IMG/VR virus record: IMGVR_UViG_2617270978_000023
Source of the DNA: a virus
Lineage: Duplodnaviria; Heunggongvirae; Uroviricota; Caudoviricetes
Strand: one strand, 5' to 3'
Length of the DNA: 27,371 bases
Under the pieces are notes generated by a model that was given only the letters and a program-made list of their open reading frames with translations, did no database searches and was not told the DNA's origin. A program made the position numbers and the translations under genes. Position 1 is the first letter of the stretch. Every line of letters begins with the position of its first letter. This document shows positions 25,614 to 26,409 of the stretch, piece by piece.

Positions 25614-25716
25614 GTGGTAAACCCTATAAAATTATCTGTATACAAATAAAACAGTTCAACATCGGATATATAAAGAAAATCTGATGTCTCGCCGCTCTCA
25701 TGAGCTTACTCCTGAA

Positions 25717-25755
25717 GAAATTCCGAATTTTAATATAAAGTTTTTCGGAATTTCC
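25717..25755. promoter_or_regulatory. Perfect 11-bp inverted repeat GAAATTCCGAA-n17-TTCGGAATTTC upstream of the autotransporter gene
   Basis: Read directly; about 105-140 bp upstream of the start codon in an AT-rich non-coding stretch. Confidence 0.4.
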
Positions 25756-26409
25756 TTACTATAACGTCGGTGATATCACGTTCGTGAAGGGGTATCCGCA
25801 TTACGACTGGCCTGCCACTTATGCTGTCTCTTTATTCATCAACAATTTGTATACGGTTACATATTTAATTGTGAAGTTAGTCACAAAAAGAAGAAAGTCA
25901 AATAATCAAATTGTGCTTAACTGTTTACATCAGCACAATCTGATGACCATTGAAGGACGCACTAAATTATTTTCAGCAACCCCTCAGCCTACGAAAATTC
26001 TGTATTTGATGATTGTTTTATTTGCTCTCTTTTTATGCAGCCATTCTGTTGCTTATAAAAAAGCACCACTATCTCATGTATGATTTCTGGGTCTGTCGCC
26101 TCCCCGTTTTTCACTTACAGATGCCGGGCAATATTCAGTTGCCGGAATAAGCAGTTACCATTCAATACGAAAATCCTGTATTGCATCCGCGCCCTCATAT
26201 CAATATCTTTGTCGCCGGATAAAAATAACTATCAACCACAAGTATCATGCTCTCGGTGAGCACGCACTCCCCGGTTTTTTTCTTTGACAGGGGTGAAGGA
26301 GGCTATTGTGCCTCCTTAAATTTTTATTACCGAATAATTTGCCTCAACCAGGGTATTATTTAGCTGTAGATTTGTAGCAAGGGGCTATGGCTTGCCCCTC
26401 TCTTTTTTA

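Follow-up and report, generated by a model that had tools for sequence, protein, structure and literature searches.

What is the role of a long stretch of apparently noncoding DNA that lies directly upstream of a surface protein gene in a prophage? The question is raised by IMG/VR virus record IMGVR_UViG_2617270978_000023, a stretch of 27,371 nucleotides (nt) that is referred to here as the window. In it, an AT-rich intergenic gap of 796 bp (positions 25614 to 26409) without a conserved open reading frame (ORF) extends from the start codon of a trimeric autotransporter gene (24510 to 25613, minus strand; 367 amino acids; YadA_anchor, E value of 3e-16), here called the eib-like gene, to the stop codon of a tail fiber assembly (tfa-like) gene (26410 to 27003, minus strand; Pfam DUF4376). 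Eib-type trimeric autotransporters confer serum resistance, immunoglobulin binding, and chain-like adherence in Escherichia coli strains that make Shiga toxin but have no enterocyte effacement locus (LEE negative) and in other E. coli. The preliminary description of this DNA, made from the letters and without database searches, had seen about 800 bp without a convincing ORF upstream of an autotransporter gene, which we found to be correct, and had suggested a regulatory region, possibly silenced by nucleoid proteins, or a small-RNA locus. Comparison with related loci identifies the gap as the already-sequenced control region of an Eib-type adhesin moron, and not as a new kind of element. We propose, with moderate confidence, that it serves as the cis-regulatory region of a prophage moron cassette that would consist of the control region, the Eib-like adhesin gene, a terminator, and the downstream gene ORF-156.

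Identity and distribution of the gap

Over 86% of its length, the gap is 92.6% identical to the DNA that precedes eibA in the P-EibA prophage of strain ECOR-9 (GenBank AF151091; Sandt & Hill 2000). Over the first 460 bp the identity is about 98 to 98.5%, and the inverted repeat discussed below is identical. The P-EibA region occupies the same place, between the tfa-like orf-191A and the eib gene, and that gene is followed by the same terminator stem-loop and the same ORF-156 (ORF-156A) as in the window. The terminator of the eib-like gene (24448 to 24485, minus strand) is a 10-nt perfect inverted repeat followed by T8, and AF151091 carries a "stem_loop" feature at the same place. P-EibA differs in lacking 114 bp (approximately 26074 to 26187 of the window) and in carrying, for the last 119 bp, another allele that is 75% identical. 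The gap as a whole is mosaic. The adhesins differ as well, since the window protein is only 40% identical to EibA overall, with a conserved signal peptide and anchor and a passenger domain that is only distantly related. The Eib-type adhesin family is wider than earlier thought, and related clades without immunoglobulin G binding, Cla and Yal, have been described (PMC13534694). Overlooked in the preliminary description were both the identity of the gap with the published eib upstream region and the presence, in the same window, of the known activators ibrA and ibrB.

The gap was present at 96 places in 32 of 5,426 complete E. coli genomes, always beside an eib-like gene, and its distal 230 bp showed the same restriction to eib-like loci in those genomes. 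A 21-mer probe at the gene start, compared with genome contigs, matched only three unrelated metagenome-assembled genomes, whose likeness to the window ends with the ~20-nt probe itself and which were therefore taken as chance matches. The annotated neighbors at loci L001, L002, L003, and L059 agree with a tfa-gap-YadA_anchor layout in a lambdoid prophage. The window DNA itself is from E. coli, with positions 1 to 2397 belonging to a ynfF-like molybdopterin oxidoreductase gene and the remainder to a prophage of the 933W/Sepvirinae type inserted at that gene. All genes around the gap are carried on the minus strand, and tail-associated genes continue beyond ORF-156. The G+C content is 0.33 to 0.42 over positions 25000 to 26400 and 0.51 to 0.55 in the flanks, in agreement with the AT-richness described earlier.

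Sequence constraint next to the start codon

Forty distinct copies of the gap were gathered from viral, metagenomic, and genomic collections. Nucleotide diversity (pi) was computed among 42 unique gap copies, with the codon positions of the adjacent tfa gene as the yardstick. It was 0.023 for positions 25614 to 25760, 0.037 for 25761 to 25990, 0.054 for 26187 to 26290, and 0.083 for 26291 to 26409, and the corresponding values for tfa codon positions 1, 2, and 3 were 0.025, 0.029, and 0.083. The ~150 bp proximal to the ATG are as constrained as nonsynonymous sites, because their diversity matches that of codon positions 1 and 2, and the far end of the gap resembles synonymous sites.

Weaker-similarity searches yielded five further eib-like families, represented by L057/L058, phage GER2, an eibG-type group that includes JNEC-KY208, S19-141, and L078/L082. 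The gaps in these families are 360 to 405 bp long and align with the window, at ~70% identity, over no more than the ATG-adjacent ~170 bp. The proximal conserved control region (25614 to 25760, minus strand), which contains the ribosome-binding site (RBS), promoter-like hexamers, and dyads, has blocks in common with all five diverged families. Read on the gene strand from the farthest upstream, these are GTAAG[AG]nnnnTCC[TG]A (block 1), an A/T-rich spacer (block 2), [TC]GGAATA[TC]CCT (block 3), ATCAGATTTTCTTTA (block 4), and TTTGTATACA (block 5), which is invariant and fixed at 31 to 32 nt from the ATG. Block 6 is an 8-bp palindrome over the RBS that reads GGTATACC, GGATATCC, or GATATATC and is mutated to GGTTTACC in the window. 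With its low diversity and with blocks common to eib-like loci that are only ~70% identical, the ATG-proximal ~150 to 170 bp is the part of the gap for which the suggested regulatory region stands.

Within this region of the window, an invariant palindrome block, TGTATACAAA (25637 to 25646), lies at the same fixed distance of 31 to 32 nt from the ATG in all families. A second inverted repeat, IR2 (ACATCGGAT-n11-ATCTGATGT; 25659 to 25687), includes the conserved block TAAAGAAAATCTGAT (25671 to 25685) and is a 16-bp perfect repeat in the L057 family. The best sigma-70-like promoter, a consensus match only, is TTGAAC-17-GATAAT (25631 to 25659, minus strand). Its -10-like GATAAT is flanked by two GTATAC-type palindromes (25616 to 25623 and 25637 to 25644) that are 20 to 21 bp apart. 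The upstream palindrome of this type, TGTATACA, is invariant in all families, and the one over the RBS changes symmetrically between families (GGTATACC or GGATATCC), with a point mutation in the window (plus strand, GGTAAACC). A LexA box was considered and rejected: CTGTATAC at 25636 is half-site-like, but in every family its partner half-site is either absent or shifted by one base.

The inverted repeat and the predicted box pair

The perfect 11-bp inverted repeat that had drawn attention to this stretch was found again, although its spacer is 16 nt rather than 17 and it ends at 25754 rather than 25755. This repeat, IR1 (25717 to 25754), has the arms GAAATTCCGAA (25717 to 25727) and TTCGGAATTTC (25744 to 25754) and lies 104 to 141 bp upstream of the ATG of the eib-like gene. 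It is the sole perfect inverted repeat of at least 11 nt (loop up to 40) in the whole 27-kb window. However, IR1 exceeds chance expectation only moderately: dinucleotide-preserving shuffles of the gap reached its length in 9 of 1,000 cases (0.9%), and dyads of at least 9 nt arose in 13% of the shuffles. Its arms are unchanged in the 40 family copies, save for a different first base of the right arm in a single copy, and the commonest polymorphism lies in the spacer, at 25737. In AF151091, this 38-nt repeat is marked as "stem_loop" on the strand of the gene, and no function was assigned to it in the accessible texts, which do not include the original 2000 and 2002 papers.

IR1 can be compared with the published binding box of the regulator RcsB. 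The RcsB box has the form TN(G/A)GAN4TC(T/C)NA, with a weaker form TN(G/A)GAN4(A/C)CTNA, and the box of the rcsA promoter is listed as TAAGGTTTATCCGA (PMC7913699). Conserved blocks 1 and 3 are both 14-bp pseudo-palindromes. The distal box of the window, Box-R (25745 to 25758, minus strand), has the minus-strand sequence TAAGGAAATTCCGA and the plus-strand sequence TCGGAATTTCCTTA. Taken on the plus strand, it agrees with the weaker RcsB form, and its arms are the same as those of the rcsA-promoter box. The strict form is matched on both strands by Box-R of the L057 (TAAGATATTTCCTA), L078 (TAAGAAAAATCCTA), S19-141 (TAAGATAAATCCTA), and eibG-type (TAAGACAAATCCTA) families, and it is missed at one position in the GER2 family (TACGATAATTCCTA). 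The box arms are fixed across these ~70%-identical families (TA[AC]G[AG]....TCC[TG]A), and the central 4 nt vary (AAAT, TATT, TAAT, CAAA, TAAA, and AAAA). The proximal box of the window family, Box-L' (25713 to 25726, minus strand; TCGGAATTTCTTCA), starts 32 bp from Box-R, includes the left arm of IR1, and is identical to the eibG-type proximal box (TCGGAATATCCTGA) at 11 of 14 positions. In other families the proximal box occupies the alignment columns of positions 25701 to 25714 (minus strand), where the window holds a degenerate remnant, and it fits the weaker RcsB form in four families.

The starts of the two boxes are 43 to 44 bp apart in four families, 32 bp apart in the window family, and 33 bp apart in GER2. 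These spacing classes differ by about one helical turn, as would be expected if proteins on both boxes faced the same side of the DNA. As aligned, IR1 is the overlap of the two predicted boxes, Box-R and Box-L', in inverted orientation and 32 bp, or about three helical turns, apart. It resembles two paired binding sites of RcsB/LuxR-type regulators, and these would occupy both. In shuffled sequences, the chance of any strict match per 215-bp stretch was 0.008 to 0.024, and that of any weak match was 0.017 to 0.027. The relaxed box pattern occurs in the 27-kb window only at Box-R and at positions 19653 to 19666. The latter site is a strict, fully palindromic RcsB-box-like 14-mer, TAAGAATCTTCCTA, which lies 3 bp upstream of a lom/ail-like outer-membrane gene (18913 to 19650, minus strand) and overlaps its RBS; it may be due to chance.

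A number of observations weigh against reading this region as a constrained promoter with paired regulator boxes. Recombination or recent spread may be part of the cause of the low proximal diversity and may inflate the contrast with the distal end, and the region is visibly mosaic. The sole sigma-70-like match would leave a leader of only ~11 nt, and the other families do not keep its -35 hexamer. The window boxes are the weakest of all the families compared: Box-R (TAAGGAAATTCCGA) departs from the strict RcsB consensus by its G at position 5, and one position of Box-L' disagrees even with the weaker pattern. The GER2 boxes likewise miss the published patterns. The RcsB box is low in information, with 196 sites in a Salmonella genome, mostly inside genes (PMC7913699), and the repeated box matches are not independent events, because the families share ancestry.

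ORF-156 and the IbrAB pair

A candidate for a protein that acts on the boxes is encoded by ORF-156 (23949 to 24419, minus strand), which immediately follows the eib-like gene at each of the loci inspected. All of its annotations call it hypothetical, and it belongs to phrog_6585, where no function is assigned. ORF-156 gave no Pfam match even at an E value of 10, and the GerE/LuxR family model was not matched significantly. Nevertheless, its C-terminal sequence resembles a LuxR-type helix-turn-helix, and a PDB profile search with 21 ORF-156 homologs returned LuxR/GerE proteins only, at weak E values of 0.13 to 0.3. The AlphaFold2 model (predicted local distance difference test [pLDDT], 83.6; predicted template modeling score [pTM], 0.75) shows four helices after an alpha/beta domain that is receiver-like. 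Foldseek placed RcsB first among the structures similar to this model, followed by FixJ, EvgA, NarL, VraR, LiaR, and VpsT, with E values of ~1e-3 and probabilities of up to 1.0. The modeled architecture, a C-terminal four-helix LuxR/GerE domain after a receiver-like domain, is that of the NarL/FixJ group. Asp52, after strand 3, is nearly invariant, and strand 1 is followed by T-R-N and not by the acidic pair of a receiver, a departure in which ORF-156 resembles the auxiliary partners of RcsB.

ORF-156 therefore models as a NarL/FixJ-type (LuxR helix-turn-helix) regulator, though an atypical one, and it is plausibly the adjacent regulator to which the preliminary description had referred. We suggest tentatively that RcsB, ORF-156, or both could be the protein that binds the boxes. 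A 93-amino-acid remnant of ORF-156 was observed in another locus (L112, 3932 to 4213), between a collagen-like tail fiber gene and a gene for a protein of 567 amino acids. The 933W-like viral contigs with such a remnant carry no eib gene, which suggests that the cassette was once present there and was then lost.

A second source of regulation lies at the other end of the prophage. The ibrA gene (4297 to 5523, plus strand) encodes a protein of 408 amino acids with phosphoadenosine phosphosulfate (PAPS)-reductase and DUF3440 domains, and it overlaps an ibrB-like gene (5508 to 6152, plus strand) for a ParB-type protein of 214 amino acids. The pair adjoins ynfF and two antirepressor genes and is 20 kb from the gap, the arrangement that Sandt et al. 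2002 reportedly described for the "IbrAB island" of ECOR-9. According to PMC7649339, with reference to Sandt 2002, the two genes trans-activate eib genes, whose expression requires ibrAB. Static culture and a temperature of 37°C induce EibG (PMC4352079). Plasmids that complemented had no native upstream DNA other than a 168-bp eibG fragment (PMC13534694), and both boxes lie inside it. The eib-related papers that were searched mention no promoter, operator, or cassette-encoded regulator.

The distal part of the gap

Position 25990 is the start of two old tandem units, ~176 bp each, with ~57% identity between them. Each opens with a 17-mer, TACGAAAATYCTGTATT, and closes in a GGGGAG-loop-CTCCCC hairpin followed by a T-run. 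U1 (25990 to 26165, plus strand) starts with the 17-mer TACGAAAATTCTGTATT, and its end hairpin, T0 (approximately 26088 to 26112), is degenerate in the window. U2 (26166 to 26281, plus strand) has its 17-mer at 26166 to 26182 and ends in T1 (26255 to 26281, plus strand), a GGTGAG-CACGCA-CTCCCC hairpin plus T7 that has one mismatch in the window. Two further terminator-like hairpins were located by a hairpin scan. T2 (26296 to 26327, plus strand) has its hairpin at 26296 to 26317, followed by the A/T-rich, mostly T tail AAATTTTTAT, and T3 (26380 to 26409, plus strand) has its hairpin at 26380 to 26399, followed by a T-tract, and abuts the tfa stop codon. The T3 stem is conserved, and its loop differs in a second allele. 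T2 and T3 are the two plus-strand hairpins with U-tracts that had been recognized beforehand, and T0 and T1 are additional.

In the commoner allele (L035), T0 is intact, and there are five plus-strand terminator-like matches at four distinct sites, T0 to T3, with none on the minus strand; the expectation was 0.8 ± 1.0 for both strands together. By their sequence, T2 and T3 in the window and T0 to T3 in L035 have the form of intrinsic terminators, a G+C-rich hairpin directly followed by a T-run. A terminator of the late operon was looked for and rejected, as IR1, IR2, and T0 to T3 have no minus-strand T-run in the window. In the absence of a minus-strand terminator in the gap, late-operon transcription can read into the adhesin gene.

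The distal part is also variable. In the metagenomic copy L014, precisely one 176-bp unit is gone between the two TACGAAAATYCTGTATT 17-mers, and the P-EibA-type copies have a 114-bp deletion that is different from and nonhomologous to that loss. An 11-bp unit, ATGACCATTGA (25943 to 25953), is a small variable-number repeat within the gap, with one copy in the window, two in L047, and three in L050. On this comparison, the distal ~450 bp (25960 to 26409) is regarded as a spacer that is specific to the window family and variable by insertions and deletions. The terminator array would most simply be an insulator against antisense transcription into the tail genes, and it is possibly a relic of an earlier context of the cassette.

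Alternative explanations

The "stem_loop" feature in AF151091 implies that IR1 might act in RNA, as a hairpin that forms in late read-through transcripts or in an extended 5' leader of the eib-like mRNA, with an effect on mRNA stability, processing, or translation, for example in response to temperature. The minus-strand RNA indeed gives a 13-bp hairpin of -13.8 kcal/mol (z of -3.4), a 200-nt leader-like stretch is more stably folded than its own shuffles (z of -3.15), late transcripts would contain the hairpin since no minus-strand terminator lies between the tfa and eib-like genes, and EibG is down-regulated at low temperature (PMC4352079). However, RNAalifold on nine sequences from five families gave no conserved hairpin at the position of IR1. 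In other families the dyads at that position differ, are shorter, or are missing; around a common center, every family has a dyad of its own, and the hairpin register is not conserved. The hairpin is ~100 nt from the RBS, which is not sequestered, and the fold of the plus strand is just as good, which a dyad at the DNA level would lead one to expect. Nor is the apparent pairing between the start codon and the upstream CTCATGAG conserved. Sequestration of the start codon was rejected, because the complementarity with GCUCAUG (approximately 25694 to 25700) rests on a CATG palindrome and is not conserved in the eibG and GER2 families. We regard a leader hairpin as distinctly improbable. A simpler proposal is that the gap is merely AT-rich DNA of horizontal origin under a coat of H-NS, with a repeat and boxes that have no specific role and with activation by general antisilencing, for instance by IbrAB. 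In its favor are the G+C content of 33 to 38% compared with ~52% in the flanks, the poor expression outside the native strain and the dependence on ibrAB that are reported in PMC7649339, and the frequency of short dyads in AT-rich DNA, as seen for those of at least 9 nt in the shuffles above. Silencing by H-NS in itself fits the AT-richness of the gap. Against H-NS as the whole explanation, the proximal part is as constrained as nonsynonymous sites, the conserved box positions contain G/C while the A/T-rich center and spacer vary across families, and the spacing classes lie one helical turn apart. We consider this explanation quite unlikely.

The other two alternatives would assign a product to the gap. 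The distal half (about 25900 to 26409) might encode one or two plus-strand small RNAs (sRNAs), U1 and U2, that travel with the adhesin cassette. This would account for the excess of terminators on the plus strand only in the commoner allele, and two of those terminators close the tandem units, both of which keep the 17-mer and the GGGGAG/CTCCCC hairpin despite being ~57% identical. The ~100-nt U2 is laid out like many Hfq-type sRNAs, with a 5' hairpin, an A/U-rich single strand, and a terminator, and a plus-strand promoter-like site occurs at 25878 to 25906. Several prophage sRNAs of this type are known in E. coli, namely, DicF, IpeX, AgvB, and AsxR, and U1 and U2 resemble them as short units that end in intrinsic terminators in prophage intergenic DNA beside accessory genes. 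They differ in having no sequence or covariance-model likeness to any Rfam family, in being decayed or deleted in many copies, and in being known from sequence alone. Rfam gave no match in the gap, either at E values of up to 10 or at the gathering score, and none in four other copies at E values of up to 1. The promoter candidates match at no more than 9 of 12 positions, and the spacing of the upstream motif differs between U1 and U2. Moreover, the distal region is unstable and dispensable: T0 and T1 are damaged in the window, L014 lacks one unit and P-EibA lacks 114 bp, and none of the other eib-like families has any of this distal part. The last 119 bp of the gap are as diverse as synonymous-like sites. 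The small-RNA locus that was suggested earlier is thus unlikely in our judgment. It is highly improbable that the gap is a decayed or unrecognized protein gene, be it the 99-amino-acid ORF (25784 to 26083, plus strand) or a small hydrophobic peptide (26010 to 26083). Automated annotations of related phages do place small ORFs here, with strands that differ between records, but no ORF of the gap retains its frame or length across the 40 distinct copies, among which insertions and deletions of 11, 111 to 114, and 176 bp occur. The 99-amino-acid ORF, which had already been thought noncoding, is present only in the window and in one near-identical genome copy among the 40, and the other copies interrupt it by the 11-bp insertion or deletion, by stops, or by deletions. 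Its region has no Pfam or PHROG match, tblastn of the longest variant ORF against phages returned the same locus only, and P-EibA has lost the ATG of the small peptide.

Other features of the prophage

Outside the cassette, two Rfam sRNA-Xcc1 matches were observed on the plus strand (2808 to 2896 and 3345 to 3430), with 69 and 73 bits against a gathering score of 53. The first is just upstream of the first AntA-type antirepressor gene (2937 to 3221), and the second is at the 5' end of the second antirepressor gene (ORF at 3309 to 4100). On the minus strand, between 6241 and 15279, a gene for a SocA/Panacea-domain protein of 174 amino acids adjoins that of a giant protein of 2,787 amino acids with a partial CLCA_X match. 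The giant protein is annotated as LPD38 in a relative, and it is typical polyvalent phage cargo. In the related prophages L057 (7075 to 7233) and L059 (19543 to 19683), a hok/sok module separates the J or lom genes from those for the tail fibers.

A model for the control of the cassette

The general model that we favor, again with moderate confidence, is one of protein-binding dyads in a constrained promoter region with a nonessential distal spacer. The working part would be the ~150 to 170 bp at the ATG, with the RBS, a weak sigma-70-like promoter between the GTATAC-type palindromes, the A/T-rich block, and the two boxes. Under ordinary conditions, the AT-rich promoter would be poorly active and probably silenced by H-NS. 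Dimers of a NarL/FixJ-type regulator on both boxes, on the same face of the DNA, might then activate or desilence it. The regulator could be host RcsB, ORF-156, or an RcsB/ORF-156 heteromer comparable to RcsA-RcsB or BglJ-RcsB. The IbrA/IbrB pair, 20 kb away, would supply a further positive input, one that has already been published.

There are parallels for this in known systems. Like the RcsB/RcsAB-box promoters of rcsA, cps/wza, rprA, and osmC, the region has a 14-bp pseudo-palindrome upstream of a surface or envelope gene (PMC7913699). In systems such as BglJ-RcsB at bgl and leuO, RcsB acts with small LuxR-type auxiliary partners, some targets are silenced by H-NS (PMC7913699 and PMC3950696), and BglJ-RcsB activates H-NS-repressed loci (PMC3950696). 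Here, in contrast, two boxes are phased at 32 or 43 to 44 bp, the window copies depart from the strict consensus, and the sites are predictions from sequence. The candidate partner, ORF-156, differs from the known partners of RcsB in being phage encoded and without a detectable sequence family.

Morons are well known in the late region of lambdoid phages, with lambda lom and bor as examples. Like these, the eib cassette appears as an independent transcription unit of control region, surface protein gene, and intrinsic terminator between late genes, with a lower G+C content than its surroundings. Unlike lom and bor, it has an upstream region of unusual length (800 bp), brings a putative regulator gene of its own, and responds to IbrAB, a second pair of activators borne by the phage. 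What is new here is the combination, in one testable model, of paired and helically phased boxes that make up IR1, a cryptic NarL/FixJ-like gene in the cassette, and IbrAB 20 kb away. In a more far-reaching version, the eib cassette would be a self-contained module, in which ORF-156 is a phage-borne partner of RcsB on the phased boxes and the distal half encodes one or two Hfq-type sRNAs, U1 and U2. We view this version as a long shot; if it were true, adhesin expression would be tied to surface or static growth via ORF-156/RcsB, and U1 and U2 would be transcribed divergently from the adhesin gene and travel with it.

If the model of paired boxes is not confirmed, the gap stays an ordinary promoter region, sequenced before, that serves an accessory gene of a prophage. 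If it is confirmed, expression of a prophage adhesin would be linked to the Rcs envelope- and surface-sensing pathway of the host, and the small set of RcsB partners would gain a phage-encoded member.

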